Source: Kineosporiaceae bacterium (GTDB lineage Bacteria > Actinomycetota > Actinomycetes > Actinomycetales > Kineosporiaceae). Taken from it: a DNA stretch of 64,000 nt. The position numbers and the translations under genes were made by a program. Shown piece by piece: positions 22,217 to 44,893 of the stretch. Numbering within the stretch: the stretch's first letter is position 1; each line of letters opens with the position of its first letter. Location of the stretch: NCBI GenBank assembly GCA_016713225.1, contig JADJPO010000002.1:107844-171843 (forward strand), read 5' to 3'. The notes under the pieces are model-generated. The model did no database searches and was not told where the DNA came from. It worked only from the letters and a program-made list of their open reading frames with translations.

Positions 22217-22289
22217 GCGCCCGTAGCTCAACGGATAGAGCATTTGACTACGGATCAAAAGGTTAGGGGTTCGAATCCCTTCGGGCGCG
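22217..22289 (+). tRNA. tRNA-Arg (anticodon ACG)
   Basis: The hand-folded cloverleaf gives: acceptor GCGCCCG/CGGGCGC, D arm GCTC-AACGGATA-GAGC, anticodon stem TTTGA/TCAAA with loop CTACGGA, T arm AGGGG-TTCGAAT-CCCTT. CCA is not encoded. Confidence 0.9.
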
Positions 22290-22292
22290 CAG
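22248..22292 (+). repeat. att copy 1 (attL): 45-bp tRNA-Arg 3' half, identical at 41329-41373
   Basis: ctacggatcaaaaggttaggggttcgaatcccttcgggcgcgcag occurs at both positions. The integrase gene lies immediately downstream. Confidence 0.85.
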
Positions 22293-22334
22293 CGCATTTC
22301 CTCAGTAAACAGCCTCTGACCAGCGGTGACGTGG

Positions 22335-23798
22335 TCAGGGGCTGTTCTCGTCCTGTCCGGTCGTGGTCGGGTCGGAGTGGTCTTCGGTGTCCTTCCGCCC
22401 CACCGGCGCCCCACCGTTTGGTGTCGTTGCCTCGCCGATGGTGGCCTGGATCCGGGTGAGGTGGGCGTCGACGCCGCCGTCGATGCACTTGGCGTAGACG
22501 CGCAACAGGACCTCGACGCTGTGTCCGGCCCATTCGGCGACTTGGGGCGCGGGGACGCCGGCGCTGAGCCAGGTGGAGACGGCGGCGTGGCGCAGGTCGT
22601 AGGGGCGGGCGGCGAGGGGGGAAGCGGCCTGGGCGGCGGTGAGTGCCCGATCTCGGGCACGTCGCCAGATGGTGCGGTAGGTGAGGCTGGACAGGGCCTC
22701 GCCGCGCTCGCCGCGGAAGATCGGGTCGGTCTCGCCGCAGGGCCAGGTGGCGAGGTGGTGGCGCAGCAGGGCGACGAGGGCCGGCGGTGCGGGGGTGCGG
22801 CGGGACTCGCCACGGCTGCGGTGCTTGAGCTGGCGGGTGCTGCGCCGGGTGTTGTCGTCGGTCCACTGGCGTTCGATCTCGGGGGCGGCGCGGCAGGCGG
22901 TGATCCATCCCCAGCCGTCGCCGTCGGGCAGGTCGAGGTCGAAGGGTCGAAGGGCGACGGCCTCCTCCGGGCGCAGCGCGGCGTAGTACAGGCAGCCGAA
23001 GAACGCGACCAGATGTGGTCCGCTGCGCGGGGTGTTCCGGACCGCGTCGAGCAGGGCGCGGACCTGGTCGGGGTTGGCCACGGCGCGGCGGTCGACGGTG
23101 CCTGCTGTGCGCGGGGTCTTCCAGCTGAGCGTGGTGAGCGGGTTGTGGTCGAGGACCCCGAGCTCGACGGCGTAGGAGAAGGCATTGGAGAGGATCCGGC
23201 GTTTGAGTGTCGTGGACCGTCCCGCGGCGCGCTGGCCGTCCAGCCGGGTGGAGATCCGCTCGACGACCAAGCGCAGGACGTCGGGTTGCTGGAGGTCGCC
23301 CAGTGGACGGGCGTGCCGCTGAAGGCTGTCCAGGAGGGCCGTGACGTCTTCAGGCTGTTCGGGGGTGCCGCGTCGTCTGGTGTTGAACGCCCAGTTGTAG
23401 AGCGCGGAGCGCGCCGCCTGGGCCTCGTCCGTGGAGACCTCGATGGTGAGCAGCACCGGGGTGATCGAGGCGAGCGCCTCGGCGATGGACTTGCGGTGGT
23501 TCGGCGATGCGTCGGGCCACTTCATGTCGATGTACCGGCAGGCGAAGTCGTACCAGGTGAGTCTCGAGACCGAGCCGCGGATGGTGCTCACCGGGCGACC
23601 GCTCTCGATATCGAAGGCCTCGCCCTTGCGTTGGGCCGCGACGAGTTCGGACCGGAAGCTGTCGGCAGCTGCGGCCGTCCGGAAGACCGACTTCCATCGG
23701 CGTCCGGCGACGAACCAGGTGACCCGATAGCTGGTGGCGCGCTTGCCGACGTACCTCTCGACCGACCAGACGCGGACGTCGAAGGTGGTCTGCCTCAA
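22335..23798 (-). CDS. Tyrosine-type site-specific integrase
   Basis: The TTG start at 23798 overlaps the excisionase stop (TTGA). The N-terminus FDVRVWSVERYVGKRATSYRVTWFVAGRRW is typical of actinobacterial island/phage integrases. The catalytic region has ALRPEE, YDLRHAAVS, AGHSVEVLLRVYAKC. The track ORF extends spuriously to 24593. Confidence 0.85.
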   Translation of the reverse strand: MRQTTFDVRVWSVERYVGKRATSYRVTWFVAGRRWKSVFRTAAAADSFRSELVAAQRKGEAFDIESGRPVSTIRGSVSRLTWYDFACRYIDMKWPDASPNHRKSIAEALASITPVLLTIEVSTDEAQAARSALYNWAFNTRRRGTPEQPEDVTALLDSLQRHARPLGDLQQPDVLRLVVERISTRLDGQRAAGRSTTLKRRILSNAFSYAVELGVLDHNPLTTLSWKTPRTAGTVDRRAVANPDQVRALLDAVRNTPRSGPHLVAFFGCLYYAALRPEEAVALRPFDLDLPDGDGWGWITACRAAPEIERQWTDDNTRRSTRQLKHRSRGESRRTPAPPALVALLRHHLATWPCGETDPIFRGERGEALSSLTYRTIWRRARDRALTAAQAASPLAARPYDLRHAAVSTWLSAGVPAPQVAEWAGHSVEVLLRVYAKCIDGGVDAHLTRIQATIGEATTPNGGAPVGRKDTEDHSDPTTTGQDENSP

Positions 23799-24004
23799 GC
23801 CGCTTCCTCGCGGCCGCGCAGCCACCGGTCGAGTTCGGAGCGCCGCACCCGGATCGCGCCGTTCGGCAGCTTGATGCACCGAGGAGCGCGGCCCTTGGCC
23901 CGCCAGTCGTAGAACGTCGATCGCGAGATCTGCAGCTCCGCGCAGACCTGGGGGAGCGTCAGGCTGGTGCGTGATTCGCCGGCGAGGCGGGTGAGCGTGC
24001 CCAT
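23795..24004 (-). CDS. Excisionase / MerR-like helix-turn-helix DNA-binding protein
   Basis: ATG 24004 is preceded by GGAGG. The 69-aa product LTLPQVCAELQISRSTFYDWRAKGRAPRCIKLPNGAIRVRRSELDRWL matches the Xis-type HTH_17 pattern. Confidence 0.8.
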   Translation of the reverse strand: MGTLTRLAGESRTSLTLPQVCAELQISRSTFYDWRAKGRAPRCIKLPNGAIRVRRSELDRWLRGREEAA

Positions 24005-24219
24005 GTGGCACCTCCAGGTGAGTTGATGCAGTCGGGCTGAGCCGAGATCGCTCGGTCGCAACAAAGTAGCACGGACCGTAGGGACGTACCAGGCGTTGCA
24101 GGTACGCGACTGTCGCTGAGTCGCGCCGCTTCAGGTGGTTGTGCCAGTGGGTTCGACCGCGCCCGGTCGACGTGGTGGGGCGGCCCCGCCGGGCCGCGCC
24201 CAGCGGGCGTGCAGCTCGC

Positions 24220-24235
24220 GTAGTGACGTCACTAC
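24220..24235. promoter_or_regulatory. Perfect 16-bp palindrome GTAGTGACGTCACTAC upstream of xis-int
   Basis: It is self-complementary by inspection and lies in the non-coding stretch 24005-24835. Confidence 0.45.
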
Positions 24236-24498
24236 CTCTAGCTCGCTCCCGCCTGAACCAGAGGGGGTCTCGTCGCCACAAGGGCGGGCGAAGGCGCCCC
24301 GGGCGCAGGGCCTGAGCGGCCCTCGGAAGGACTCCCGCCGTGGTCATCGCAGACTGGAAGGGCATGCCGTCCAGGGGCGCCGGGTCTGACGCCGACGGTG
24401 TCCAGAGGCTGTCGCAGGCGTCCGCCCGGTGCCCGTGGCCAGATCGGTGCCCTTGGCGACGGGGGGCCCGCGCCTGGCGTTCGCGGCATCGCCAGGAG

Positions 24499-24604
24499 GG
24501 TGATGACGGATGACGGATCAGAGCCTTTTCCACATTTTCCCGCGTACGTATACGCGTACGCGGGTAATAGCGGCTGACCCCCAAATCCGTCATCCGTCAT
24601 CACC
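24499..24604. promoter_or_regulatory. Perfect 20-bp inverted repeat built from doubled CCGTCATC units, flanking an AT-richer core
   Basis: The arms are ggtgatgacggatgacggat (24499-24518) and atccgtcatccgtcatcacc (24585-24604). The core contains ttttccacattttcc and cgcgtacgtatacgcgtacgcg. Confidence 0.6.
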
Positions 24605-24835
24605 CCGGCCCGCGGGTCGGCCACGGGTGTCACCCCTGAGGCGATCCCGTTCTCCCGGCCCGTCACCCGGATGCGGAGACAGGGGGTAACACGGGCGCTG
24701 ACCTGCACCGTCATCCGATCTGGGGCGGAAAGGCCGGTGGGGGTACTCACCTTCGTCAGCGGACCGTTACCCCACCGCGTGGCCTCGTCACCTATCCGTC
24801 ATCGGCCCGATGGGTGACGGGTCGACGAACGTCCG

Positions 24836-25312
24836 TTGGCAACGGTTCACGGCGTGAAGAAGCCCACCGATGACCAAGAACGCACCGCGTCGATCGAACC
24901 GAGCGAGTCTGTGACGGCCCTTGACCGTCATTCCGTGAACCCCCGTCGTCACCGTGCCCGTCATCCCCGACCACGCGTCGAAGAGGGGCACGTCATCGGA
25001 GTCAACGGTGAAGCGCCGCGTGCTGCGGTCGACATCGGCCCAGAGGACGACGCCACGCCCGTCACGGAGGAAGACATCGCCACTGTCGCGTGCTGGCGGT
25101 GCGGCGTCGACATCCAGCCGATTCCCGCCAGCGCGGTGAGCGTGGACGGGTCCTGCCCAGACTGCGCCCTGCAACAGGCTTGCCAAGGACTCGGCCATGT
25201 CTGGGCGCCCTGGACGGAGATGGGTCCGTCACTCAGCGGCCGCTGGCCGAGCGGACGAGCGCGCTACTGCCGTGTCTGCACCCACGGCGAATACGATCCG
25301 CCTGCCGCCTGA
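24836..25312 (+). CDS. Hypothetical Cys-rich (zinc-ribbon-like) island protein
   Basis: 158-aa ORF. Its second half has GC3-rich codons and CxxC pairs (CWRCG, CPDC, CRVC). The start is uncertain, and an antisense 136-aa ORF competes with it. Confidence 0.4.
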   Translation: MATVHGVKKPTDDQERTASIEPSESVTALDRHSVNPRRHRARHPRPRVEEGHVIGVNGEAPRAAVDIGPEDDATPVTEEDIATVACWRCGVDIQPIPASAVSVDGSCPDCALQQACQGLGHVWAPWTEMGPSLSGRWPSGRARYCRVCTHGEYDPPAA

Positions 25313-25384
25313 GCCCTCGACGCAGTGGCGGCCACCGGGGCAGCTGGTAGGACCGCGCAGCCCCTACCCCCGTAGGGTGGCGGA

Positions 25385-26005
25385 GTGCGCAGCCGCAGGA
25401 CACGCCCAGCAACGCCGGTGCAACCCGCGCCGGACGTCGAGTGGCTCACCCCCGCTCCGGACGGCAGTCACGTGGAACTGGCCTGGCCAGAGGCCGACGG
25501 CCCGTACACGTTGACCTGTCACCTGGCCAGGGTGGACGGGCGCACGATGCTGGTCGGCCTGGACATCCGCAGCTTCACCCTCGATGCCGACGGCGAACCG
25601 GTGCCGGGCACGGGCGGGCTGGTCGAGGTGAACCACCCCGCGCTGCGCTCGCTCAGAGCGGGCGAGATCGCCGAGGCCGCCCGCGCCACCCTTGCGGTTC
25701 TGCTGGCCACCAAGGCCACGTCCCGTGCCTTGAGTAAGGACGCCCGCCAAGCCGCCGCCCGAACCCTGGAGACCCTCACCGCGCCGAGCCGGCCGGGCGC
25801 CCGGTCACGCCCCGCCGGCAGCCAACTGGAGAAGGTCGCCGGACTCTTCAATCAGGCCGTCGCAGCCGGCGGCGACTCAGCCCGCCGACCCTCGATCTAC
25901 GTCCACCAAGCCCTCGTCGAAGAGGGCCAAGACGTCAGCCTGAACACCGTCCGCGGCCAGATACACCGCGCCCGCGTCAAAGGCCTCATCCCACTCGCAC
26001 CCTGA
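25385..26005 (+). CDS. Hypothetical island protein (a decayed paralogue lies at 41484-41876)
   Basis: 206-aa ORF with a GTG start. Its C-terminal two thirds are repeated, with frameshifts, in island B, which supports a real conserved island gene. Confidence 0.6.
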   Translation: MRSRRTRPATPVQPAPDVEWLTPAPDGSHVELAWPEADGPYTLTCHLARVDGRTMLVGLDIRSFTLDADGEPVPGTGGLVEVNHPALRSLRAGEIAEAARATLAVLLATKATSRALSKDARQAAARTLETLTAPSRPGARSRPAGSQLEKVAGLFNQAVAAGGDSARRPSIYVHQALVEEGQDVSLNTVRGQIHRARVKGLIPLAP

Positions 26006-26090
26006 CCGACGCTATGCGGGATGCATGGCAGCGGACGACTCCTCACTCTCGCGCAAGGCTCAGTGGCGCAGAAGATGTCCGTCACGCCAG

Positions 26091-26338
26091 CCGACGTCCT
26101 GGCCACCGTCATCCACCGCATCCGGCAACCCTCCGGTTCGGTCGCCTGCGTGGCGTCCTACGACCCGCACGAACGGGTCTGGAACCCGCCGATGCCGCTG
26201 CTGTTCCAACGCCAGATCGGTATGGACACCCGCGCCATCCCCGCCGGCACGATCAGGGACTGGATCTGCCGGTCACTGCCTGACACCGGGCCGGCTGACA
26301 CCGGCCGCGAGGGCGCCGGGCAGACGAGCTCGGCGGGA
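26091..26338 (+). pseudogene. Tyrosine recombinase gene, fragment 1 of 3 (5'-truncated, then interrupted by IS1634-family element)
   Basis: It reads ...VACVASYDPHERVWNPPMPLLFQRQIG... and continues in frame at 28147. Similarity to the island backbone (shared with island B) stops at about 26090, so the N-terminal ~400 aa expected for such recombinases are absent. Confidence 0.65.
26205..26338 (+). repeat. 134-bp direct repeat, left copy (target duplication of the IS1634-family insertion)
   Basis: It is identical to 28013-28146 by inspection and directly abuts the IS terminal inverted repeat. Confidence 0.85.
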
Positions 26339-28012
26339 CCCGACTTGGCTCACGTTTGGTGATCTTGGTGTGTTGCGGGGCTGTGACCTGCGGCGACGTT
26401 GATTGATCATGGGTTTGGTGTGCACTAGCCGGGGGGTGTGGGTCGTAGGCTCGGTGGGTGTCTCCTTACGTTCGGACGGTGCGGACGTCTTCGGGTGCGC
26501 GGGCGGTGCAGATCGTGCACTCGTCGCGGCGGGGGTCGCGGGAGATCACTCATGTCGGGTCGGCGCACACCGATGCCGAGTGGGAGGTGTTGAAGGCCGC
26601 GGCGTGGCAGCAGGTGGCGGCCGGGCAGGGTGAGCTCGACCTCGGCCTGGAGGGTGGGTCGGGTGGGTCTGCTGGTCGGGGTGCTCCGTTGCCGATCACG
26701 GCCTCGCGGATGGGGTACCTGTGGGAGGCGTTGAGTCGTGCCTACCAGGTCCTGGGGTTCGATGCCGCGGCCGGTGGGGACGGGGTGTTCCGGGATCTGG
26801 TGCTGGCCCGGATCATCGAGCCGACCAGCAAGCTCGACGCGGCCCGGGTGTTGGAGGAGGCGGGTGTGCCGGCCGCGTCGTATGCGACGTTGAAGCGGCG
26901 ACTTCCGATGTATGCCAAGGCGTCCTGGCAGCAGAAGCTGTCCGCGGCATGCGCCGCCCATGCCGGGCTGGGTCCGGCCAGCCTGGTCCTGTTCGACGTG
27001 TCCACCCTGTATTTCGAGACCGATCAGGGAGACGGGTTCCGGGAGAGCGGATTCTCCAAGGAACGCCGCCTGGAACCACAGATCACGATCGGCCTGCTCA
27101 CCGACGCATCGGGATTCCCGTTGGCGGTCAACGCGTTCGAGGGCAACAAGGCGGAGAAGGCCACCATGCTCCCGGTCATCGAGGCCTTCATGCGCGCTCA
27201 CCAACTCAGAGACGTGACGGTGGTCGCCGACGCCGGGATGATCTCCGCGGCCAACCAGGAGGCGATCGAGGAAGCGGGCCTGTCGTTCATCCTCGCCGTG
27301 AAGATCCCCGAACTGCCCTACTGCGTGCGGACCTGGCAGGCCAAGAACCCCGGTGAGCCGTTCACCGACGGGCAGATCTTCACCCAACCCTGGCCCGCCG
27401 GCGCCAAGGACACCCGCCGCGACCAGGTCATCTACTACCAGTACCGCGCTGATCGTGGCCGGCGCACGCTACGCGGCATCGACGAACAGGTCGCCAAGGC
27501 CGAGAAGGCCGTCGCCGGCAAGACCGCCATCAAACGGAACCGGTTCGTCAAACTCACCGGCGCCGACAAGAGCGTCAACCGCGCCCTGGAAACCAAGGCC
27601 CGGTCCCTGGCCGGGATCAAGGGCTACGTCACCAACCTGGCCGCCTGCCCCGACGGCACCGCGATCACCGCCGACTTCGTGATCGGCGCCTACCACCGGC
27701 TCTACCTGATCGAGAAGGCCTTCCGCATGTCCAAGCACGACCTGGCAGCCCGACCGATCTACCACCACAAGAAGGAATCGATCGAAGCCCACCTGACCAT
27801 CGTGTTCGCCGCCCTGGCCATCTCCCACTGGATCGAGACCACCACCGACTGGTCGATCAAGAAGTTCGTGCGGACCCTGCGGCGCTACCGCACCATCACC
27901 ATCCAGGCCGGCGCCCACACCATCACCGCCGAAGACCCCCTACCGCACGAGATCCGCGACATCATCACCAAGATCAACTCAACCGGACGACACTAGCCTG
28001 AGCCAAGTCGGG
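26339..28012 (+). mobile_element. IS1634-family (IS4-related) insertion sequence, 1674 bp
   Basis: Terminal inverted repeats are cccgacttggctca (26339-26352) and tgagccaagtcggg (27999-28012). It has a single 512-aa transposase ORF and is flanked by a 134-bp direct duplication. Confidence 0.85.
26458..27996 (+). CDS. IS1634-family DDE transposase
   Basis: The N-terminus MSPYVRTVRTSSGARAVQIVHSSRRGSREITHVGSAH is the hallmark start of IS1634-type transposases as I recall them. It is 512 aa and intact. Confidence 0.85.
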   Translation: MSPYVRTVRTSSGARAVQIVHSSRRGSREITHVGSAHTDAEWEVLKAAAWQQVAAGQGELDLGLEGGSGGSAGRGAPLPITASRMGYLWEALSRAYQVLGFDAAAGGDGVFRDLVLARIIEPTSKLDAARVLEEAGVPAASYATLKRRLPMYAKASWQQKLSAACAAHAGLGPASLVLFDVSTLYFETDQGDGFRESGFSKERRLEPQITIGLLTDASGFPLAVNAFEGNKAEKATMLPVIEAFMRAHQLRDVTVVADAGMISAANQEAIEEAGLSFILAVKIPELPYCVRTWQAKNPGEPFTDGQIFTQPWPAGAKDTRRDQVIYYQYRADRGRRTLRGIDEQVAKAEKAVAGKTAIKRNRFVKLTGADKSVNRALETKARSLAGIKGYVTNLAACPDGTAITADFVIGAYHRLYLIEKAFRMSKHDLAARPIYHHKKESIEAHLTIVFAALAISHWIETTTDWSIKKFVRTLRRYRTITIQAGAHTITAEDPLPHEIRDIITKINSTGRH

Positions 28013-28146
28013 TCCAACGCCAGATCGGTATGGACACCCGCGCCATCCCCGCCGGCACGATCAGGGACTGGATCTGCCGGTCACTGCCTGACACCGGGCC
28101 GGCTGACACCGGCCGCGAGGGCGCCGGGCAGACGAGCTCGGCGGGA
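28013..28146 (+). repeat. 134-bp direct repeat, right copy
   Basis: It is identical to 26205-26338. Confidence 0.85.
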
Positions 28147-28571
28147 GGGCCGCTACGGTTCACCCCGCATGACTTTCGAAGGATCTTCATCACCGACGCC
28201 GTGCTGCACGGCATGCCACCCCACATCGCTCAACTCGTCGCCGGGCACCGGGACATCAACACCACCATGGGTTACAAGGCCGTCTATCCCGAGGAAGCGA
28301 TCAACGGCCACCACGCGTTCATCGCCCGTCGACGAGCCCTGCGACCCAGCGAGGAGTACCGCGCCCCGACTGATGCCGAGTGGCAGGAGTTCCTCGGCCA
28401 CTTCGAGCACCGCAAGGTCTCCCTGGGCACCTGCGGGCGCTCCTACGCCACCGCCTGCATCCACGAACACTCCTGCCTGCGCTGCCCGCTGCTGCGCCCC
28501 GATCCCGCTCAACGCCACCGCCTCGTCGACGTCCGAGACAACCTCATCGCCCGGATCGACGAGGCTCGCCG
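28147..28571 (+). pseudogene. Tyrosine recombinase gene, fragment 2 of 3 (catalytic C-terminal region)
   Basis: It carries RFTPHDFRRIFITDAVLHGMPPHIAQLVAGHRDINTTMGYKAVY (HxxR, GH and catalytic Y blocks) followed by the Cys-rich extension CIHEHSCLRCPLLRPDP. The reading frame breaks at the IS256/IS21 insertion point. Confidence 0.8.
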
Positions 28572-28576
28572 TGTCG

Positions 28577-29994
28577 GGTCTGTAGGGCCAACGGTGTAAC
28601 CGGCCTGACGGGTAGACCAGCGTGTCTGCCAGGAAGGTCCAGTGATGGCCGACAAGATGCAGGGCATGAATGCTCTGGCTAAGAGAATCGAGATGTCTGA
28701 GCTCAAGCCTGGTGATGCTGAGCGGGCCGCGATCCGGGAGATGGTGAAATCTGCCAAGGATCGTGGTCTTGCTTTGACCGGGCCGGATGGCTTGTTGAAG
28801 ATCCTCACCAAGACGGTGCTGGAAACAGCGCTGGATGAGGAAATGACCGGTCACCTCGGTTATGAGAAGCACGCCGTGGAAGGCCGCGACGGCGGGAATT
28901 CCCGTAACGGGATCCGGTCGAAGACGGTGTTGACTGATTCGGTCGGGCCGATCGAGATCGATGTCCCGCGGGACCGGGATGGAAGTTTCGATCCGGTCAT
29001 TGTGAAGAAACGTCAGCGCCGGATGGGTGATGTCGATGCGATCGTCTTGTCGCTGTATGCGCGCGGGTTGACCACCGGTGAGATCAGCGCACATTTCGCG
29101 GAGGTCTACGGCGCGAGTGTGTCGAAGAATGTGGTCTCGGCGATCACCGATCAGGTGATCGAGGAAATGACGGAATGGTCGACCCGGCCGTTGGCCTCGC
29201 ACTACGTGGCCGTGTTCGTCGACGCGGTGCATGTGAAGGTCCGGGACGGGCAGGTCGCCAACCGGCCCTTCTACGCGGCCATCGGCGTGGACCTGCAGGG
29301 CCGCAGGGACGTGCTGGGCCTGTGGGCCGGCACCGCCGGGATGGGTGAGTCGTCCAAGTATTGGATCTCTATCTTAACCGAGTTGAAGAATCGTGGGGTG
29401 ATCGACATCTTCTACCTGGTCTGTGACGGCTTGAAAGGCATGCCCGATTCAGTGAACACGATCTATCCCGACACGATCGTGCAGACCTGTGTCGTGCATC
29501 TGATCCGGAACACGTTCCGGTATTCCTCGAAGAGGTATTGGGGTGAGCTCGCCCGGGACGTGAAAGCGATCTATACGGCGGTGGACGCCACGGCGGCGTG
29601 GGCGGCGTTCGAATCGTTGGAGGAGAAATGGGGGAAGCAGTATCCCGCGATCAGTAACCTGTGGCGGAATGCCTGGGAGAACTTCATCCCATTCTTGGAC
29701 TACGACATCGAGATCCGCAGACTGCTCTGCTCGACGAACGCGATTGAATCGATGAATGCCCGGTATCGGCGGTCCGTGGACGCGAAAGGTCATTTCCCCA
29801 CCGAGCAGGCAGCCATGAAAACCCTGTACTTGACCACCCGTAGCCTCGACCCGAAAGGAACCGGACAGAAACGATGGATCACCCGCTGGAAACCCGTCCT
29901 GAACGTCCTGGCGGTCGTTTTCGCCGACCGCATGCCCACCCCTGCTAGCCTCTAAAACACCAACCGCCGGTTACACCGTTGCGCCCACAGTCTC
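28577..29994 (+). mobile_element. IS256-family insertion sequence (~1.4 kb)
   Basis: Imperfect terminal repeats GGTCTGTAGGGCCAACGGTGTAACCGG and (reverse complement) GAGACTGTGGGCGCAACGGTGTAACCGG bound it. It is flanked by direct repeats of up to 12 bp (CTCGCCGTGTCG at 28565-28576 and 29992-30003). Exact ends are good to plus or minus 3 nt. Confidence 0.8.
28642..29955 (+). CDS. IS256-family (Mutator-type) transposase
   Basis: 437 aa. LTGPDGLLKILTKTVLETALDEEMTGHLGYEKH...NSRNG...DRDGSF and the later blocks DGLKG and CVVHLIRN are typical of IS256 transposases. Confidence 0.9.
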   Translation: MMADKMQGMNALAKRIEMSELKPGDAERAAIREMVKSAKDRGLALTGPDGLLKILTKTVLETALDEEMTGHLGYEKHAVEGRDGGNSRNGIRSKTVLTDSVGPIEIDVPRDRDGSFDPVIVKKRQRRMGDVDAIVLSLYARGLTTGEISAHFAEVYGASVSKNVVSAITDQVIEEMTEWSTRPLASHYVAVFVDAVHVKVRDGQVANRPFYAAIGVDLQGRRDVLGLWAGTAGMGESSKYWISILTELKNRGVIDIFYLVCDGLKGMPDSVNTIYPDTIVQTCVVHLIRNTFRYSSKRYWGELARDVKAIYTAVDATAAWAAFESLEEKWGKQYPAISNLWRNAWENFIPFLDYDIEIRRLLCSTNAIESMNARYRRSVDAKGHFPTEQAAMKTLYLTTRSLDPKGTGQKRWITRWKPVLNVLAVVFADRMPTPASL

Positions 29995-30066
29995 GCCGTG
30001 TCGCTTGCCAGCGTGATGGGACCACCCGTTCTGCCACGAGGATGGGACCACTGTGGGGCGGCTTGA

Positions 30067-30894
30067 TCATGGGGTTCGGTCGCTGTCGGGGTCAAGCCGG
30101 GCAGGTGCTGGGGCGTGGGGGCGTTGCCGGTAGGAGGGTCCGTCGAGGATCAGGGTGTGGGCGTGGCCGGTGAGCCGGTCCACGGCTGCTTGGGCCAGGA
30201 GCTGGTCGCTCGTCATTGCGAGCCACTCAGACGGGTCCCGGTTGCTGGTCACGATCGTCGACGCGGCTCTCGCGTGGCGTTCGACGGCGAGTTCGTAGAA
30301 GTCGTTCGTGGTGACCGGATCCAGGGCCTTCAGCGCGAAGTCGTCGATGATCAGTAGGTCGAGGCGGGCGAGCCGGCGGAACTCGGTCTCCAGGGTTTGG
30401 TCGAGGCGCGCGGCGCGCAGGCGGGTGAACAGCTTCTCCGCGCGGACCATGTGCACGGTGTGCCGGCGACGGACCGCGATGTGGCCCAGGGCATTCGCGC
30501 AGTGACTCTTCCCGACGCCGACCGGGCCCAGGACGAGCAGATTGTGGCCGGCGTCCAGGAACCGCAACGAGATCAGGTCAGCGAACGCGGCCCGGTCGTA
30601 GATCAGGTCGGCGGGTTCGGTCCAGGTCTCGATCCGCATCCGAGGGATCAGCCCCGCCCGGGTGGCCCGGGTCGCCGCGGAGCGGTTCTCCCGGCGGGCG
30701 ACCTCGTCGCCCAGGATCTGCTCCAGGAACTGGTGATGAGACAGCTGCCGACTCTTGGCCAGCAGGAGCCGCTCGGGGAGGGTGTCCTTCAGCCCGGACA
30801 GCTTCAACGCCCGCAGCAGCGCCAACAGATCGCTGCCCAGCGGATCCACCGGCATCGTCGTATTCGGCGGGATGGTCGGGGTGGTCAGGGTCAT
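30067..30894 (-). CDS. istB: IS21-family helper ATPase IstB
   Basis: 275 aa with Walker A GPVGVGKSH and Walker B LLIIDDF. Its start overlaps the istA stop (ATGA). Confidence 0.9.
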   Translation of the reverse strand: MTLTTPTIPPNTTMPVDPLGSDLLALLRALKLSGLKDTLPERLLLAKSRQLSHHQFLEQILGDEVARRENRSAATRATRAGLIPRMRIETWTEPADLIYDRAAFADLISLRFLDAGHNLLVLGPVGVGKSHCANALGHIAVRRRHTVHMVRAEKLFTRLRAARLDQTLETEFRRLARLDLLIIDDFALKALDPVTTNDFYELAVERHARAASTIVTSNRDPSEWLAMTSDQLLAQAAVDRLTGHAHTLILDGPSYRQRPHAPAPARLDPDSDRTP

Positions 30895-37395: not shown

Positions 37396-37754
37396 AACAA
37401 GAACAACCTCATCGTCAGCAGCGATAAGGAAACATTCCTGTCGCTCGACGCTCCACCGGCGAGCGGAATGGAAATCGACGACCCTCTGCTAATCGTTGGG
37501 AAGTACAGCCGTGCCAGCGCCGCCCAAGTACGGTCCAAGAACGCGGCGTCGTGAGCCTTTGGCACGCGCATTCTCACGGATGACTTTAGGCGACGGTCTA
37601 CAACCCATCCCTCGTCTTCAAGCGCAGGCACCATCGAGGGCCGCACCGTCCGGAAAAGGGAAGGGTTCAGTCGCTTCCTGGTCTCGGGCCGGACCCCTCG
37701 AGGCGGCACCCACGAATCGGAGGTGAATGCGTCGGGAACGCGGGCTGTGCTCAT
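37341..37754 (-). CDS. Probable N-terminal segment of the DGQHR/HEPN protein, separated from it by a 1-nt frame change near 37480-37500
   Basis: Its ATG overlaps the methyltransferase stop (ATGA at 37751-37754). The first ~85 aa look protein-like (EDEGWVVDRRLKSSVRMRVPKAHDAAFLDRTWAALARLYFP) and the remainder looks like out-of-frame sequence. The downstream frame is open from 37482 and reads VVDFHSARRWSVERQECFLIAADDEVVLVVDCVS. Confidence 0.5.
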   Translation of the reverse strand: MSTARVPDAFTSDSWVPPRGVRPETRKRLNPSLFRTVRPSMVPALEDEGWVVDRRLKSSVRMRVPKAHDAAFLDRTWAALARLYFPTISRGSSISIPLAGGASSDRNVSLSLLTMRLFLLWIAFRWILCALTPSAMN

Positions 37755-38593
37755 CGGCAGTCCGGTAGGTTAGTGAAGATGTACTCGGATGCGTTTCCTC
37801 GGACCGAGCCGGTTCCACCAACATTGTTGCGCCGCGTCAGCTCGATGCGTGTGTCTCCCTTGTCGAAGAGCTGCGCGATAGAGGAGTGGGCGGCGTTGGT
37901 GAGAATGTAGAACGCACCCCGCTCCTTGATTGCATCCACCAGGTCGCTGAGGCGATGCTGATCTTCAAAGGAAAAGAGCTTCTGATTGTACTTTACGAAG
38001 CCATTATTGTTGTGGGCAACCGTGTATGGAGGATCCAAGAAGACAAGGTCTCCATCCGTAACGTTGTCGATGCATTCCGCGAAGTCTGCAACGCGTAGTT
38101 CTGTTCCCTGGAGTGGCGCGGAGACCGCGCGGAGCCATTTACGATTCGGGATGTGTTCCTTCTCGCGACTACCATAGGGGACGTTGTATATCCCTTTGAG
38201 GTTGACTCGATAAATTCCATTAAAGGACGTAGCGTTCAGGAAAATGAATCGGGCCGCTCGACCCTTCGCTGTGCGCGGCTTGGAGTCGCGGAGATGGTAG
38301 TAATACTCGGGAGTGTTTCGATGCGTGCGCAAAATGTCGGCAACACCCTCTGGATCGTCGCGAATCTGCTGGTAGGTCTCGACAAGTTCCGCGTTGAGGT
38401 CCGCAAGGTATGACTTTCCTGAGGGGAGTATTCCGAGAAACACCGAGGCGCCACCAAGAAACGGCTCGTGGTAATTCTTAAATGAAGTCGAGTTCAACAT
38501 TTGTCGCAACGTGGGGACAAGCCAGCGCTTCCCGCCCGCCCATCGCAGTACCGGCTGCGCTCCTGAGCCGAGGGGAACACCGTTGCCGGTCAT
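37751..38593 (-). CDS. D12-class (Dam-family) N6-adenine DNA methyltransferase
   Basis: 280 aa with LRWAGGKRWL, EPFLGGASVF (AdoMet motif I) and LVFLDPPY (motif IV). The order is that of the alpha group. Confidence 0.9.
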   Translation of the reverse strand: MTGNGVPLGSGAQPVLRWAGGKRWLVPTLRQMLNSTSFKNYHEPFLGGASVFLGILPSGKSYLADLNAELVETYQQIRDDPEGVADILRTHRNTPEYYYHLRDSKPRTAKGRAARFIFLNATSFNGIYRVNLKGIYNVPYGSREKEHIPNRKWLRAVSAPLQGTELRVADFAECIDNVTDGDLVFLDPPYTVAHNNNGFVKYNQKLFSFEDQHRLSDLVDAIKERGAFYILTNAAHSSIAQLFDKGDTRIELTRRNNVGGTGSVRGNASEYIFTNLPDCR

Positions 38594-38745
38594 TCGGCGA
38601 TGCTAGCCGATCCCGTTGATCGAGTCAGGACGATGGAGACTGATGTCGCATGACCGTCAGCGGCGCGAAGCGCCATATCCTGCCGGTCGGCCAAACGCCA
38701 TCCGAGCTGCCAGCCTCGCTGGTCCGGCTCTGACGGATTGCCTGA

Positions 38746-39167
38746 AAGGACCGGCCGGCAGCCACTCCTGCAGCGCCACTCGTAGAGCCGCTCGGCCGAC
38801 GGTGGCTTCGTGTAGTTGCTGTCGCGGCTCACGCGTCGGCCATCTCGGCGGCGCTGCTGCACGCTGACGAGTCCGAAGCGGTCGTCACCGCGGCGTGGCT
38901 GCACGACATAGGTATGACCTCGGAAAGGACGCAGACTCGGACAAGGGTTGTGCCGCAGAGCGCTTGCGAGCTGACCCGACACCCATGCAGTGAATCGGTT
39001 CGGTTGAGTGGTCTATGCATTGGGTGCTCGGCCAACGCAGGTTTGCGAGCTCTGCGACTTTGAGCGGGTGTCGTGAGGGCGTAGGGGCTCGTGGCCCCGT
39101 CATGCTGACCGCGGCCGAGCGCCGCGAGGTCGCCGAGCCGCTTCGGCGGGGCCCGAAAGCAGGCTGA
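38746..39167 (+). pseudogene. Possible decayed HD-domain phosphohydrolase gene
   Basis: Frame 1 reads PLVEPLGRRWLRVVAVAAHASAISAALLHADESEAVVTAAWLHDIG, which resembles the start of small actinobacterial HD-domain proteins. No start codon is in frame and the sequence after HDIG needs frame changes. Confidence 0.3.
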
Positions 39168-39341
39168 GCTGTCACCGAAACACCCACCGCCGCCCAGGCG
39201 ACTGAGCGGGTTGCGATCCCGGTACTCCTCCCTCCCCAGCTCCGAGGCTATTCTCGGGCGCTTGCGGCGACGGTGAGGCCATGATGGTTACTCTCCGTAG
39301 CAGAGCTACGGATCAAGAGGCCGGTTCAGCCGGAGACCGAC

Positions 39342-39380
39342 TGTTGTTCATTGCTAACCCCTGTTCATGCATAATGAACG
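39342..39380 (+). promoter_or_regulatory. Putative AbiEi promoter/operator: GTTCAT x2 direct + ATGAAC inverted in an AT-rich patch
   Basis: The sequence is tgttGTTCATtgctaacccctGTTCATgcataATGAACg. The same arrangement and spacing recur at 43424-43462 before the paralogue. Confidence 0.5.
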
Positions 39381-40413
39381 AGTGCCTTTATTGAACGATG
39401 TGGATGTGGTGGATCGCGCGCTGGCTGGCCTGGCCGACGTGGGACTCCGAGCGGTCCGGCGAGGTGAGGGAGTGGTGGTCCACGCCGGGGATGGCGCGCA
39501 CCGCAGGTACCGGCTCGTGGTTCGTGATCGGATGACGGCGCCGGTGGCGGGGGCGATCGAGGCACCTGGTGAGGCGTCGGGTGCGGCGACGTTGGTGGTG
39601 GCACCGTTCGTTCCGGAGCCGGCGGCTGTGGTGTTGCGTGGGCGGGGTGTGGACTATGTGGATGCCGCCGGGAACGTGTCGTTGCGCTGGGGCGGCGTCT
39701 GGATCGACGTTCGTGGACGGCGCCGGGTCATGGCCGATGTCCCGGTGACCGCGCCGAGCGCGCGGCGTCCGTTCACGCGTTCGGGGGCGCAGGTGACCTT
39801 CTGTCTGTTGTCCTGGCCGCAGCTGTGCGCGACGAGTGTGCGCGAGATCGCCGCGGCCAGTGGGACGGCGGTGGGCACGGCACAGGCTGTACTGCAGGAC
39901 CTGATCACGGGTGGCTACCTGGTCGGGGCCGGCGCCGGGCGGCGCTTGGTGCGTGGCGGGGAATTGCTGACCCGGTGGGCGGAGGCCTATGCCCTGTCGC
40001 TCTACGCCTCGCTCGAGTTGGGCACGTACCACGCCGAGGACCCGCGCTGGTGGACCGATGCCGGCGAGGAGTTGCTCGACGCGGGGGTCGATCTGGGGGG
40101 TGAGGCGGCCGCGTCGCGGATGGATGCGCATCTGCGCCCCAGCGGGGCGATCCTCTACGCCGAGACAGTCCCGGCGGGCGTGCTGGCCGCCCATCGGTGC
40201 CGCCGCGTCCAGCGACCTGACGAGGCAAACGTGGTGGTGCGCAGGCGGTTCTGGACCGTCCCGCAGGAGTCGGATCCGACGGAACCGCAGGGGTTGGCGC
40301 CCTCGGTGTTGGTCTACGCCGATCTGCTGGTCTCGGGAGATCCCCGTCAGCGCGAACACGCTCTGCGAGTGAGGAGTGGTGATGCTCGACTGCGTCGGCT
40401 CGACGGAAGCTGA
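39367..40413 (+). CDS. AbiEi-like antitoxin/transcriptional regulator (type IV toxin-antitoxin, AbiEi_3-type), copy 1
   Basis: 348-aa ORF followed by an overlapping nucleotidyltransferase gene. It has a central wHTH-like segment (SVREIAAASGTAVGTAQAVLQDLITGGYLV). The family assignment is from memory of the AbiEi_3 architecture. The true start may be one of the in-frame GTG/TTG codons at 39382-39409. Confidence 0.65.
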   Translation: MHNERVPLLNDVDVVDRALAGLADVGLRAVRRGEGVVVHAGDGAHRRYRLVVRDRMTAPVAGAIEAPGEASGAATLVVAPFVPEPAAVVLRGRGVDYVDAAGNVSLRWGGVWIDVRGRRRVMADVPVTAPSARRPFTRSGAQVTFCLLSWPQLCATSVREIAAASGTAVGTAQAVLQDLITGGYLVGAGAGRRLVRGGELLTRWAEAYALSLYASLELGTYHAEDPRWWTDAGEELLDAGVDLGGEAAASRMDAHLRPSGAILYAETVPAGVLAAHRCRRVQRPDEANVVVRRRFWTVPQESDPTEPQGLAPSVLVYADLLVSGDPRQREHALRVRSGDARLRRLDGS

Positions 40414-41191
40414 CCTCCTGCTGGAGGCGCAGGCCCTCGGCCGACTCACCGCTGCCCTGGGCGCCCCAGCATCTGGCCTCATGGTCATCGGCGCCACGGC
40501 TCGAAACATCCTGTCCGTCGGCCTGTTCGGCCGCTTGCCCCGACGAGGTACCCGCGATGTCGACATCGCGGTCGCCGTCGCGTCGTGGTCCGCCTACGAG
40601 CGAGCCACGGCGACGTTGCGGCGCCGGGCTGGTGTGCACGCCTTCACCGTCGACGTCGACGGCGTGCACGTGCCGGTCGATGTCGTCCCCTACGGCGGTA
40701 TCGAAGCGGTCGACCGCACGGTCGACCTACCCGATGACCACAGGCTCAATGTCCTCGGACTCCGTGAGGCCTTCGCCACCGCCCAGACCGCGCGGCTGCC
40801 CGGCGACGTCCAGGTGAGGGTGCCCACCGTGCCCGGACTGACCCTGCTGAAGCTGGTCGCCTGGTCTGAGCGCCACCTGCTGCATCGACGCGATGCCGTG
40901 GACCTCGACGAGATCATCGGCTGGTACGCCCAGGGCCGCTTCCTCGACGCGTTGTACGCGGACGTCGCGCTGCTCGAGCTCTACGACTTCGACATCGAAC
41001 TGGCCGCCGCGCATCGCCTCGGATCCGACGTCAGCGCGCTCCTGTCGCCCGCTGCCCACGTCGCGATCGAGGCCCTCCTCGGTCAAGATCGCCGCGCTCG
41101 ACTCGCCGGCGACATGCTGCGATCGGCCACCCGGCATCCTCACCGCCTCGACGCACTCGCCAACGGTTTCGGTGCGGAGGTCGCCTCCTGA
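40382..41191 (+). CDS. Nucleotidyltransferase, AbiEii-like toxin candidate, copy 1 (intact)
   Basis: ATG 40382 lies 5 nt after GAGGAG and overlaps the upstream gene by 32 nt. It has the NTase motif GATARNIL...RGTRDVDIAV. Confidence 0.65.
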   Translation: MLDCVGSTEADLLLEAQALGRLTAALGAPASGLMVIGATARNILSVGLFGRLPRRGTRDVDIAVAVASWSAYERATATLRRRAGVHAFTVDVDGVHVPVDVVPYGGIEAVDRTVDLPDDHRLNVLGLREAFATAQTARLPGDVQVRVPTVPGLTLLKLVAWSERHLLHRRDAVDLDEIIGWYAQGRFLDALYADVALLELYDFDIELAAAHRLGSDVSALLSPAAHVAIEALLGQDRRARLAGDMLRSATRHPHRLDALANGFGAEVAS

Positions 41192-41328
41192 CCACACGGC
41201 CCGAGTCGACCATCGTGACGCCCTTCGGACCTCTCGCCCCACGAACGCCCCACCATCAGCGTCCTGCCGCGAATGCAGCCCGCGTTGTCACAGGTCAGCG
41301 GCCCGCGGCGCATCGATTGTGCGGCGGT

Positions 41329-41373
41329 CTACGGATCAAAAGGTTAGGGGTTCGAATCCCTTCGGGCGCGCAG
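41329..41373 (+). repeat. att copy 2 (attR of island A / attL of island B)
   Basis: It is identical to the 45 bp at 22248-22292. A further ~115 bp (41374-41487) repeats the sequence downstream of attL, including the integrase 3' end (22293-22408). Confidence 0.85.
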
Positions 41374-41483
41374 TGCATTCCTCAGTAAACAGCCTCTGAC
41401 CAGTGGTGACGTGGTCAGGGGCTGTTCTGGTTGTGTCCGGTCGTGGTCGGGTCGGGAATGGTCTTCGGTGCCCTTCCGCCCCA

Positions 41484-41876
41484 TGGGCGGGCTGGTCGAG
41501 GTGAACCACCCCGCGCTGCGCTCGCTCCGGGCGGGGGAGATCGCCGAGGCGGCGCGCGCTACCCTTGCGGTGCTGCTCGCCACCCAAGGCCACCTCCCGT
41601 GCTTTGAGCAAGGACGCCCGCCGAGCCGCCGCCCGAACCTCGAGACCCTCACCGCGCCGAGCCGGCCGTGTGCCCGGTCACGCCCCGCCGGCAGCCAACT
41701 GGGAAGGTCGCCGGGCTCTTCAACCAGGCCGTGGCCGCCGGCGGCGACTCAGCCCGCCGGCCGTCGATCTACGTCCACCAAGCCCTGGTCGAAGAGAGCC
41801 AGGGCATCAGCCTGAACACCGTGCGCGGCCAGATCCACCGCGCCGCGTCAAGGGCCTGAGCCCGCAGGTACCCTGA
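41484..41876 (+). pseudogene. Decayed paralogue of island gene 25385..26005
   Basis: GGLVEVNHPALRSLRAGEIAEAARATLAVLLAT is identical to the island A protein. Reading then needs several frame changes (track ORFs 41411.., 41565.., 41668..). Confidence 0.7.
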
Positions 41877-42357
41877 GCGACGCCACGAGGGATTCGCGGC
41901 AGAGGATGACTCGTTACTTCGCGAAAGGCTCAGCTGGCGCAGAAGATGTCCGTCACGCCGCGGAGCGACAACGCGCACAATGCCGACGAGCGGGAGGCTT
42001 AGCCTCACTGCAAACTCACGTCAGAGGCCTTGCCGCTGGGCAGTCGTGTTGGTCGTGTGTGTCAGCGCGGGAGAACAGGTGCACGACCTCGCACCTGCTC
42101 CTGGATGCAAGACCAGTTGCCAAGCCTCGGGATCTTCGTCTTTGGCGGTAACTCCGAGGACGGTGCCCCTGCGTCGCCTCTCGCACCCTGTGTGCTGAGG
42201 ACCTTGGCCCAGGGGCCAGCAGCGCGCCAGGGCTAGCGTCGAAGAAGCAGGTGTCGGCGTGCGTCGGCATCGGTGCGTTCACCCCTCGGGCAGACCGAAG
42301 TCGTTGCGGAGCAGACAGCGCGCCTAGCGGGATCGTGCTCGATGAAGGAGTCGACCC

Positions 42358-43275
42358 ATGGCCGCAATTATGCGTGAAGGGTATGACCGACGCAGCACGC
42401 CTGCGGCGGTCCTCTTGCTGACTCACCCGGTAGCCGCGTTCTTCGTGCTGGCCTACCTCCTCAGCTGGGTGTACTGGCTGTTTGTGCTCGGGATCATGGG
42501 ACGAGACACGCTTGCCTGGTTCATTCCTGGCGCCTTCGGGCCTCCACTCGCCGCGCTGATCGTGACGGGGCTGCTTGAGGGCCGGGCCGGTACTCGAGCG
42601 TTCCTGCGGCGCTGGGTCCAGTGGCGGGTCGGGGCGCGGTGGTACGTGCTGGCGCTGGTCGGCCTTCCGGCGCTGGGACTGCTTGTCGGGCTGCTGTCCC
42701 GGGACTGGAGCGAGCGGTTCGCCGGGTCGGGCCCATCGGTGGCCGTGACGTACCTCGCGACGTTGTCCCTCGTGGCGGTCTTGGGGGGTGGGCAGGAAGA
42801 GCCCGGATGGCGCGGATTCGCACTACCTCGCATGCAGGAGCGCATGGGGCCTCTCGCGGCGTCGGTGGTCTTGGGGGTGCTGTGGGGCCTGTGGCACCTA
42901 CCGGTGTTCATCCTCGTGCCTGGGTACAACTTCGCCGGCGCTGGCGTGGCCAGCATCGCCGGGAGCGTAGTGGTCTTCACGGCCGCCGGCACGGTCGGGC
43001 AGTCCCTGCTGCTGACGTGGCTGTTCAACCACACCGGTGGCAGCGTGCTCCTCGCTGTGCTGGCCCACGCATCGCTCAACGCCGGCACAGCGTTGGTCGC
43101 CGGTCGGACCGCGTCGATGGCCGTCGATGTGTTGTTTGGGGTCGTCGGTGTGGTTCTCGTGCTCGCGACACGGGGGACGCTCTCCTATCAGTCCGCTGGA
43201 CACTCAGGCGGCACCGGAGCTGCCGACTCTCGACCGGGGGCAGGCGTCCGCTTGAGGACCACGGCCCAGCGGTGA
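42358..43275 (+). CDS. CPBP-family intramembrane glutamic endopeptidase (CAAX protease / Abi family)
   Basis: ATG is preceded by GAAGGAG. It is a multi-pass membrane protein with the EEPGWRGF, LWGLWH and HASLN motifs. Confidence 0.85.
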   Translation: MAAIMREGYDRRSTPAAVLLLTHPVAAFFVLAYLLSWVYWLFVLGIMGRDTLAWFIPGAFGPPLAALIVTGLLEGRAGTRAFLRRWVQWRVGARWYVLALVGLPALGLLVGLLSRDWSERFAGSGPSVAVTYLATLSLVAVLGGGQEEPGWRGFALPRMQERMGPLAASVVLGVLWGLWHLPVFILVPGYNFAGAGVASIAGSVVVFTAAGTVGQSLLLTWLFNHTGGSVLLAVLAHASLNAGTALVAGRTASMAVDVLFGVVGVVLVLATRGTLSYQSAGHSGGTGAADSRPGAGVRLRTTAQR

Positions 43276-43423
43276 ACGCCGGGTCACGTCGCGCCCACGG
43301 TCGTGCATGAGGACCTCGTCGGTCATCGGCTCTCGTCGAAGCAGGGGCTCGGCGCCGCGGACACCGTCCTGGTCGCCCGGCCACCCACGTCCGACTTCGA
43401 GCGCCGCCCGGACGCCGCTGGGC

Positions 43424-43462
43424 GCGCGTTCATTCTTGACCCCTGTTCATGCATAATGAACG
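43424..43462 (+). promoter_or_regulatory. Second copy of the putative AbiEi operator
   Basis: The sequence is cgcGTTCATtcttgacccctGTTCATgcataATGAACg. Confidence 0.5.
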
Positions 43463-44495
43463 AGTGCCCCTATTGAACGATGTGGATGTGGTGGATCGCG
43501 CGCTGGCTGGCCTGGCCGACGTGGGACTCCGAGCGGTCCGGCGAGGTGAGGGGGTGGTGGTCCACGCCGGGGATGGCGCGCACCGCAGGTACCGGCTCGT
43601 GGTTCGTGATCGGATGACGGCGCCGGTGGCGGGGGCGATCGAGGCACCTGGTGAGGCGGCGGGTGCGGCGACGTTGGTGGTGGCACCGTTCGTTCCGGAG
43701 CCGGCGGCTGTGGTGTTGCGTGGGCGGGGTGTGGACTATGTGGATGCCGCCGGGAACGTGTCGTTGCGCTGGGGCGGCGTCTGGATCGACGTTCGTGGAC
43801 GGCGCCGGGTCGTGGCCGATGTCCCGGTGACCGCGCCGAGCGCGCGGCGTCCGTTCACGCGTTCGGGGGCGCAGGTGACCTTCTGTCTGTTGTCCTGGCC
43901 GCAGCTGTGCGCGACGAGTGTGCGCGAGATCGCCGCGGCCAGTGGGACGGCGGTGGGCACGGCACAGGCTGTACTGCAGGACCTGATCACGGGTGGCTAC
44001 CTGGTCGGGGCCGGCGCCGGGCGGCGCTTGGTGCGTGGCGGGGAATTGCTGACCCGGTGGGCGGAGGCCTATGCCCTGTCGCTCTACGCCTCGCTCGAGT
44101 TGGGCACGTACCACGTCGAGGACCCGCGCTGGTGGACCGATGCCGGCGAGGAGTTGCTCGACGCGGGGGTCGATCTGGGGGGTGAGGCGGCCGCGTCGCG
44201 GATGGATGCGCATCTGCGCCCCAGCGGGGCGATCCTCTACGCCGAGACAGTCCCGGCGGGCGTGCTGGCCGCCCATCGGTGCCGCCGCGTCCAGCGACCT
44301 GACGAGGCAAACGTGGTGGTGCGCAGGCGGTTCTGGACCGTCCCGCAGGAGTCGGATCGGACGGAACCGCAGGGGTTGGCGCCCTCGGTGTTGGTCTATG
44401 CCGATCTGCTGGTCTCGGGAGATCCCCGTCAGCGCGAACACGCTCTGCGAGTGAGGAGTGGTGATGCTCGACTGCGTCGGCTCGACGGAAGCTGA
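43449..44495 (+). CDS. AbiEi-like antitoxin/regulator, copy 2 (intact, near-identical to copy 1)
   Basis: The 348-aa product differs from copy 1 at only a handful of residues (for example S/A at 71, M/V at 122, A/V at 223, P/R at 304). Confidence 0.65.
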   Translation: MHNERVPLLNDVDVVDRALAGLADVGLRAVRRGEGVVVHAGDGAHRRYRLVVRDRMTAPVAGAIEAPGEAAGAATLVVAPFVPEPAAVVLRGRGVDYVDAAGNVSLRWGGVWIDVRGRRRVVADVPVTAPSARRPFTRSGAQVTFCLLSWPQLCATSVREIAAASGTAVGTAQAVLQDLITGGYLVGAGAGRRLVRGGELLTRWAEAYALSLYASLELGTYHVEDPRWWTDAGEELLDAGVDLGGEAAASRMDAHLRPSGAILYAETVPAGVLAAHRCRRVQRPDEANVVVRRRFWTVPQESDRTEPQGLAPSVLVYADLLVSGDPRQREHALRVRSGDARLRRLDGS

Positions 44496-44736
44496 CCTCC
44501 TGGCAGGCCCTCGGCCGACTCACCGCTGCCCTCGGCGCCCCAGCATCTGGCCTCATGGTCATCGGCGCCACAGCTCGAAACATCCTGTCCATCGGCCTGT
44601 TCGGCCGCTTGCCTCAACGAGGTACCCGCGATGTCGACATCGCGGTCGCCGTCGCGTCGTGGCCCGCCTACGACCACAGGCTCAATGTCCTCGGACTCCA
44701 CTCGCCAACGGTTTCGGTGCGGAGGTCGCCTCCTGA
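44464..44736 (+). pseudogene. AbiEii-like nucleotidyltransferase, copy 2, destroyed by internal deletions
   Basis: The start and end match copy 1 (MLDCVGSTEADLL ... ANGFGAEVAS). A small deletion after ADLL shifts the frame, and two blocks corresponding to about 40593-40740 and 40758-41160 are missing. Confidence 0.75.
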
Positions 44737-44852
44737 CCATGCGGCCCGAGTCGACCATCGTGACGCCCTTCGGACCTCTCGCCCCACGAACGCCCCACCA
44801 TCAGCGTCCTGCCGCGAATGCGGCCCGCGGCGCATCGACCGTGTGGCGGTTT

Positions 44853-44893
44853 CGGATCAAGAGGTCAGGGGTTCGAATCCCTTCCGGCGCGCA
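44853..44893 (+). repeat. att copy 3 (distal end of the island array), 3 mismatches to the tRNA-Arg 3' half
   Basis: Compare cggatcaagaggtcaggggttcgaatcccttccggcgcgcag here with cggatcaaaaggttaggggttcgaatcccttcgggcgcgcag in the tRNA. Confidence 0.75.

Follow-up and report, generated by a model that had tools for sequence, protein, structure and literature searches.

By what route do three copies of the 3′ half of a single tRNA gene come to stand in a row on a bacterial chromosome, and what kind of DNA do they enclose? The question is raised by the tRNA-Arg(ACG) locus of a Kineosporiaceae bacterium, which we analysed within a window of 64,000 nucleotides (the whole stretch from position 107,844 to 171,843 of contig JADJPO010000002.1, forward strand, assembly GCA_016713225.1; coordinates below are those of the window). 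The copies bound two units of DNA, called A and B here, which an initial annotation had explained as two related islands accreted in tandem at the tRNA. Tandem accretion holds, but the account was too simple, as it lacked a relic junction inside unit A, the probably internal position of the third copy, the apparent descent from AICEs (integrative and conjugative elements of actinomycetes), and recombination of the AbiE genes. We conclude that the array very probably represents the stacked and partly decayed remains of integrative elements at the sole tRNA-Arg(ACG) gene, reshaped by deletions, insertion sequence (IS) insertions and homologous recombination.

The argument starts from the tRNA, placed by ARAGORN at 22217-22290 on the + strand, and from the three copies of its 3′ part, which we treat as attachment (att) sites:

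22217-22290, + strand: tRNA-Arg(ACG), the target gene, sole copy in the genome
22248-22292, + strand: att copy 1 (attL core), beginning at the anticodon loop and extending 2 nt beyond the tRNA end
41329-41373, + strand: att copy 2, an exact 45-mer at an internal right-arm/core/left-arm junction
44853-44894, + strand: att copy 3, mismatched at 3 bases and altered in its anticodon-loop part

The first base of copy 1 is the first base of the anticodon loop. As the initial annotation had stated, the 45-mer of copy 1 recurs exactly as copy 2 and a third copy follows with 3 mismatches; these repeats follow the tRNA collinearly and exceed by far what chance would give, since none of 100 shuffles contained a match to the 45-mer (22248-22292) when up to 3 mismatches were allowed, and the T-arm 17-mer occurs three times against 0.15 expected. 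Copy 3 agrees with 22251-22292 at 39 of 42 bases, differs at 44861 (A>G), 44866 (T>C) and 44885 (G>C), and lacks the anticodon-loop CTA, with TTTCGGA in place of CTACGGA. Across the genome (5.67 Mb, 11 contigs) the tRNA 3′ segment is present in these three copies only, and a search between 44.9 kb and katG found no further one. A second ARAGORN call for tRNA-Arg(ACG), on contig C1, was rejected as a 95-nt GC-rich false positive, and no other gene for this tRNA was found in the genome. The locus thus has the outline of a genomic island: an intact tRNA gene marks one boundary, and a direct repeat of the 3′ part of that gene marks the opposite one.

Unit A (22293-41373, 19.1 kb) and unit B (41374-44894, 3.5 kb, without an integrase) are built from the following parts, to which the nested ISs and further cargo of unit A are added below:

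22293-22408, + strand: left (P′) arm of unit A, holding the integrase 3′ end and a hairpin; 93% identical to 41374-41489
22335-23798, - strand: tyrosine integrase (int), 487 aa, full length, catalytic motifs conserved
23795-24004, - strand: excisionase (xis) of HTH_17 type, its stop overlapping the integrase start
24502-24965, no strand: CCGTCATC cluster, 7 units plus a 51-nt inverted repeat (24498-24605), a presumed protein-binding array
25385-26005, + strand: o206, a conserved hypothetical gene, with homologues in closer relatives directly upstream of xis-int
39367-41191, + strand: AbiE-like pair in unit A, with an AbiEi_2-domain gene at 39367-40413 and a nucleotidyltransferase gene at 40376-41191
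41154-41328, + strand: right (P) arm of unit A
41374-41959, + strand: left arm of unit B, which runs straight into an o206 homologue that is truncated and frameshifted
42358-43275, + strand: CPBP/CAAX-type intramembrane protease, cargo of unit B
43449-44736, + strand: AbiE-like module of unit B, with AbiEi intact and AbiEii destroyed

The integrase-excisionase pair lies directly beside copy 1, as had been noted, and begins 43 nt past the tRNA. The integrase has a Pfam Phage_integrase match, and its ALRPEE, LKHR, YDLRH and GHS..YAK motifs are conserved in comparison with nine relatives.

A self-comparison of the array revealed homology between the two units that is wider than originally described and falls into three blocks: 22248-22408 against 41329-41489 (93% identity), 25609-26088 against 41482-41959 (89%) and 39346-40599 against 43428-44673 (98%). 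The first 116 nt of unit B are 93% identical to the left arm of unit A, after which the match jumps to the counterpart of 25609; the junction joins 22408 to 25609, and the 3.2-kb counterpart of 22409-25608, with int, xis and the repeat array, is gone. At the other end, AbiEi of unit B differs from that of unit A at 8 nt, and AbiEii carries deletions of 8, 138 and 391 bp. The claim that an AbiE module precedes both copy 2 and copy 3 therefore stands for the AbiEi_2 gene, and AbiEii is intact before copy 2 only. Unit B is flanked by att sites, is devoid of integrase and transfer genes and derives by deletion from an integrase-bearing relative, with a degenerate outer att; from these features we class it as a putative cis-mobilisable element (CIME), in the form of an integrase-less deletion derivative. 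A right arm and a left arm meet at copy 2, the arrangement expected from site-specific integration into the att of an element already resident.

These observations suggest that repeated recombination by tyrosine integrases at one att core, reaching from the anticodon loop to the 3′ end, would have built the array. Each integration would cross over in the anticodon loop, and the incoming element would supply the new 3′ half of the tRNA. Because copies 1 and 2 are identical, excision of unit A should leave a perfect tRNA, and we predict that int and xis could release unit A as a circle through copies 1 and 2. The situation differs for copy 3, which is altered in the presumed overlap or strand-exchange region. 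In a hybrid tRNA made of the present 5′ half and the copy 3 half, the acceptor stem acquires a C-C mismatch and the sequence is no longer predicted to fold as a cloverleaf, so that excision of A and B together would damage an essential single-copy tRNA. Given the divergence of copy 3 and the defective hybrid tRNA, B and A+B are probably locked in place, and the mismatch in the presumed overlap region argues, at the level of sequence, against efficient cis-mobilisation of unit B.

Next we examined the same locus in related genomes. The closest relative, the Kineosporiaceae metagenome-assembled genome G001, carries at the same tRNA a single 13.3-kb element with the same left and right arms, different cargo and a truncated integrase; AbiE is lacking in this element. 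The 135-nt stretch 41237-41371, which includes the last 92 nt of the right arm of unit A (41237-41328), is 90% identical to the right arm in G001. The integrase is closer to that of G001 (97.3% identity) than the flanking chromosome is (90%), with differences at 5% against 16% of third codon positions, which indicates that the element is younger than the split of the hosts. Extra copies of the tRNA 3′ half that start at the anticodon loop occur in about 16 of 40 relatives, among them G003 with three, and within the genus tRNA-Arg and katG lie between about 3 and 33 kb apart. The relatives thus differ in what lies between tRNA and katG, and the att and arm architecture recurs in independent genomes; the content at one and the same site varies, as in a genomic island. 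G004 and G006, considered as empty sites, were rejected, since an X-type left arm (see below) follows their tRNA, and no truly empty tRNA-Arg(ACG) site was found within the genus. Across the family, tRNA-Arg(ACG) is a hotspot of integration.

The picture of two units that share both ends and belong to one element family is borne out as far as the att boundaries and the homologous arms go. The array nevertheless holds more than two units, as seen from a relic inside unit A:

39234-39322, + strand: relic att junction, about 75 nt of X-type right arm and, after it, the core's initial 15-16 nt (CTACGGATCAAGAGG)

A second element family (X-type) has a right arm that abuts tRNA halves in G003, G008 and G009, and positions 39234-39317 match this arm at 77-85%. 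In G003 the X-type element encodes another integrase, one with an Arm-DNA-bind_4 domain, and its cargo is for arsenic resistance. With this fourth, truncated att junction of a second family at 39234-39322, unit A appears to be itself composite. The relic junction and att copy 3 have an AAGAGG variant in common.

Other X-type sequences were encountered in the relatives. Two loci, L062 (G009, contig C16) and L063 (G004, contig C52), carry the X-type right arm and CTACGGATCA, followed by non-tRNA sequence that begins AGGAGC; their contigs differ from those with the tRNA-Arg(ACG) gene, and they may be secondary integration sites of the X-type family. A third locus, L065 (G009, C20:5410-5526), has a full tRNA 3′ half joined on one side to an X-type right arm and on the other to an X-type left arm, as in an attP or a tandem X-X array, a structure which implies that stacking occurs in the X-type family too.

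We then considered the outer end of the array, where a short stub follows copy 3:

44895-44948, + strand: stub resembling the left arm of the element, ending at a deletion scar that abuts G001-like chromosome

The initial annotation had read the outermost, most divergent copy as an older one no longer under selection; it is probably not the old, displaced end of the tRNA. In G001, G003 and G008 the native downstream motif CTCGTTGAGACAGCGAC comes after the outermost copy, and in other genera it stands directly after the tRNA; it is absent from the window and from the whole genome. The 60 nt past copy 3 resemble the left arm of the element (z about 6), they show no such likeness to the native downstream sequence (z about 0), and from 44949 onward the sequence matches the G001 chromosome. 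With CTCGTTGAGACAGCGAC missing and left-arm-like DNA in its place, copy 3 is probably an internal junction, beyond which a further unit and the real right end have been deleted. A 3.85-kb stretch of G001, from its attR to the o121 homologue, was rejected as conserved backbone, as only scattered matches and a dispersed repeat of about 110 nt were found; a deletion in the present genome is therefore indistinguishable from an insertion in G001. The dispersed repeat, possibly a miniature inverted-repeat transposable element, lies downstream of attR in G001 (L024, about 5505-5618) and is found at at least 14 loci in the genome of the window.

We asked what kind of element the integration module of unit A derives from. 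Relatives of its integrase at 41-51% identity adjoin tRNA-Arg(CCG) or tRNA-Tyr, and the four annotated loci among them (L035, L037, L046 and L049) carry Prim-Pol/DUF3987 genes, FtsK-like genes or both. Three closer relatives (53-62%) are accompanied by o206 and Prim-Pol (L069), o206 and xis (L070) or xis and Prim-Pol (L071), with no tRNA beside the integrase in the DNA examined. In L069 and L070 the o206 homologue stands just upstream of xis/int and is co-directional with int; o206 of unit A is inverted relative to these. As in AICEs, an int/xis module of actinomycete lineage sits at a tRNA gene, and the int-xis-o206 module appears from these comparisons to be of AICE origin. No Pfam match to a replication gene (RepSA, RepAM, Prim-Pol) or to an FtsK/SpoIIIE-type Tra protein was found in the array; in the genome as a whole, tblastn with Prim-Pol matched only at C2:298 kb, outside the window, and tblastn with two Tra queries matched nothing. 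The tblastx matches of AICE relatives to the array were mostly high-GC noise, the real ones being int, xis and o206 only, and included no remnant of Prim-Pol or Tra. With no such remnant in the array and no related Tra in the genome, unit A looks AICE-derived but is not an AICE and, being devoid of replication and transfer genes, cannot move between cells by itself. Nor did Pfam detect capsid, terminase, tail or lysis genes, and the PHROGs matches of known function are the integrase and the excisionase only. The earlier view of a non-self-transmissible island that is neither AICE nor prophage is thus upheld for the absence of replication, transfer and phage structural genes; it had missed the probable AICE origin of the int-xis-o206 module.

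The o206 family consists of conserved hypothetical proteins of about 205 aa. As a strict marker of the integration module it was rejected, as some homologues occur without an integrase. The genome has a second copy (79% identity) at C2:298105-300607 (L072), about 128 kb past the right end of the window, with Prim-Pol, a D5_N primase-helicase and a relaxase fragment as neighbours, in what looks like another mobile-element remnant.

Several observations weigh against a stack built by successive integrations at the tRNA. The crossover position is placed solely by the start of the identity block. The relic at 39.3 kb could be a secondary-site insertion instead of a truncated att, because an X-type arm precedes non-tRNA DNA starting TCAAG(G/A)(A/G)G (TCAAGGAG) at three loci, this one and two others. 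The 60 nt that follow copy 3 bear a moderate likeness to the left arm, and a few short motifs are common to these nucleotides and the native downstream sequence. Finally, a mosaic of identities from 85 to 99% does not fit a simple ordered series of integrations. Identity within the AbiE blocks stands at 98-99% over 39346-41274, against 89-93% for the left-end segments and about 85% for the last 100 nt with the att, and the drop in identity starts about 55 nt before the core, not at the core. AbiEi homologues are sporadic in the family (7 of 49 genomes), and that of G009 lies about 214 kb from its tRNA-Arg(ACG). The idea of AbiE as an end module shared by the element family fails on this unevenness and on the absence of AbiE from the G001 element; together with the sporadic occurrence, they suggest that homologous recombination or duplication acted on top of site-specific accretion. 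It is possible, although we hold it for the less likely course, that the AbiE and right-arm block of unit B is a recent intrachromosomal copy of that of unit A, which unequal crossing-over of att copies, homologous recombination or gene conversion could have produced. The uneven identities, the position of the drop and the patchy distribution of AbiE all fit such a copy; unit B, however, has its own diverged left arm, an o206 remnant and a unique CPBP protease and cannot wholly be a copy of A, and gene conversion should have repaired the AbiEii deletions of B unless these are younger.

The composite of A and B with its relic might also have been assembled in another host and have arrived in one step, through excision at the outer att sites and a helper, that is, by cis-mobilisation. 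Such transfer is documented for tandems of an integrative and conjugative element (ICE) and a CIME (PMC5704250) and for tandem AICEs of Frankia (PMC3218068), and the internal X-type relic and the AAGAGG variant at relic and copy 3 fit the capture of neighbouring DNA. We regard this as unlikely: X-type and A-type elements both occur at this tRNA within the genus, so that local assembly suffices, and with the true right end missing the last integration is untraceable. Less likely by a good measure is a unit A that is still active, as an AICE-derived mobilisable parasite ferrying defence cargo, in which the CCGTCATC array would be a cis transfer locus for the FtsK-like translocase of a co-resident AICE (conjugation of double-stranded DNA) and the orphan antitoxin of B would neutralise the AbiE addiction module of A. 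Of the 11 CCGTCATC units in the window, 7 fall in 24502-24965, the spacer between xis and o206; the region 24498-24965 looks like a putative protein-binding array, whether operator, iterons or transfer locus, and this repeat array is absent from unit B and from the element of G001. It is scarcely credible that misassembly produced the repeats, or that they represent ancestral core with no mobile element. Near-identical repeats of 1.25 kb pose a general risk to assemblers, but point changes and four deletions distinguish the AbiE copies, whose flanks are also unique, the DNA of relatives between tRNA and katG differs, an integrase and an excisionase are present, and the same arm and att architecture in independent genomes already contradicts this explanation. 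We therefore retain stacked integration at the tRNA, after which later deletions, IS insertions and homologous recombination would have remodelled the array, with a further unit and the original right end apparently lost.

Part of this remodelling is seen within unit A, about half of which (about 9 kb) consists of nested ISs, followed by low-GC cargo:

26339-28012, + strand: IS1634-family IS with an exact 134-bp target duplication (26205-26338, 28013-28146)
28575-29995, + strand: IS256-family element with 30-nt terminal inverted repeats
30028-34137, - strand: IS21-family element, with istB at 30067-30894, a split istA and a nested ISL3 element (about 31883-33224)
34370-35278, + strand: IS1380-family transposase fragment
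35449-38593, - strand: low-GC cargo (56-59% GC) encoding a DGQHR-domain protein along with a Dam-like type II methyltransferase

The IS1634-family IS interrupts a C-terminal tyrosine-recombinase fragment (26021-26338 and 28147-28599). The DGQHR-domain protein has 648 aa, and a preceding open reading frame of 137 aa may be its split N-terminus. Together with the Dam-like methyltransferase it could form a defence pair resembling restriction-modification. For the AbiE-like pair of unit A, compared with AbiE type IV toxin-antitoxin (abortive infection) systems, the AbiEi regulator/antitoxin domain is well above its cut-off (PF09952, 92.5 bits against 21) and the AbiEii-like nucleotidyltransferase is a borderline match (PF08843, 22.7 bits against 22.5); the pair has no match to an AbiE system in PADLOC or NCBIfam. 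Judged from these domains, the cargo appears to be accessory and of defence type: the DGQHR protein with the Dam methylase, the AbiE-like pairs and the CPBP protease.

Tandem accretion of elements at a tRNA is a well-known route by which genomic islands grow, and the array reveals no new mechanism. It is a clear and well-bounded case of defence and accessory genes accumulating, in an actinobacterial family that has received little study, at a tRNA hotspot where one anticodon-loop core serves two unrelated integrase families and the resulting stack was altered by deletions, IS nesting and recombination. It also illustrates that the repeat farthest out in a stack may be something other than the ancestral end of the tRNA, a point that matters for the automated calling of island boundaries.

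The pattern of accretion and CIMEs is known from the elements related to ICESt1 and ICESt3 of Streptococcus thermophilus (Pavlovic 2004; Bellanger 2011; reviewed in PMC5704250). Both there and here, integration took place next to a decayed relative that keeps its att and has no integrase, and three att copies, an attP-like internal junction and several possible excision forms are found. The present array differs in its actinobacterial host, in its tRNA gene site and AICE-type integrase, in the degenerate outer att that makes cis-mobilisation doubtful, and in having no conjugation module in any unit. A second comparison is with the tandem AICEs at tRNA genes, namely Sav3708/Sav3728 at tRNA-Arg of Streptomyces avermitilis and, in Frankia, the Fean5518/Fean5534 tandem and Fean6303 with three repeats at tRNA-Arg (PMC3218068). 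Like these, the array belongs to an actinobacterial tyrosine-integrase lineage that targets tRNA-Arg, has repeats beyond the tRNA 3′ end and combines two integrase subfamilies at one site; unlike these, which keep rep and tra and whose excision was shown by PCR (PMC3218068), it has neither gene set, half of unit A is IS DNA, and its excision is predicted only. A further parallel is offered by the AICE remnants or 'mobilizable integrating elements' without tra or rep, such as Fean1457, Fcci0407 and others (PMC3218068), which, as unit A does, keep int and xis without a complete set for transfer or replication. What sets the present array apart from them is its defence-type cargo, its nest of ISs and its stacking with further remnants.

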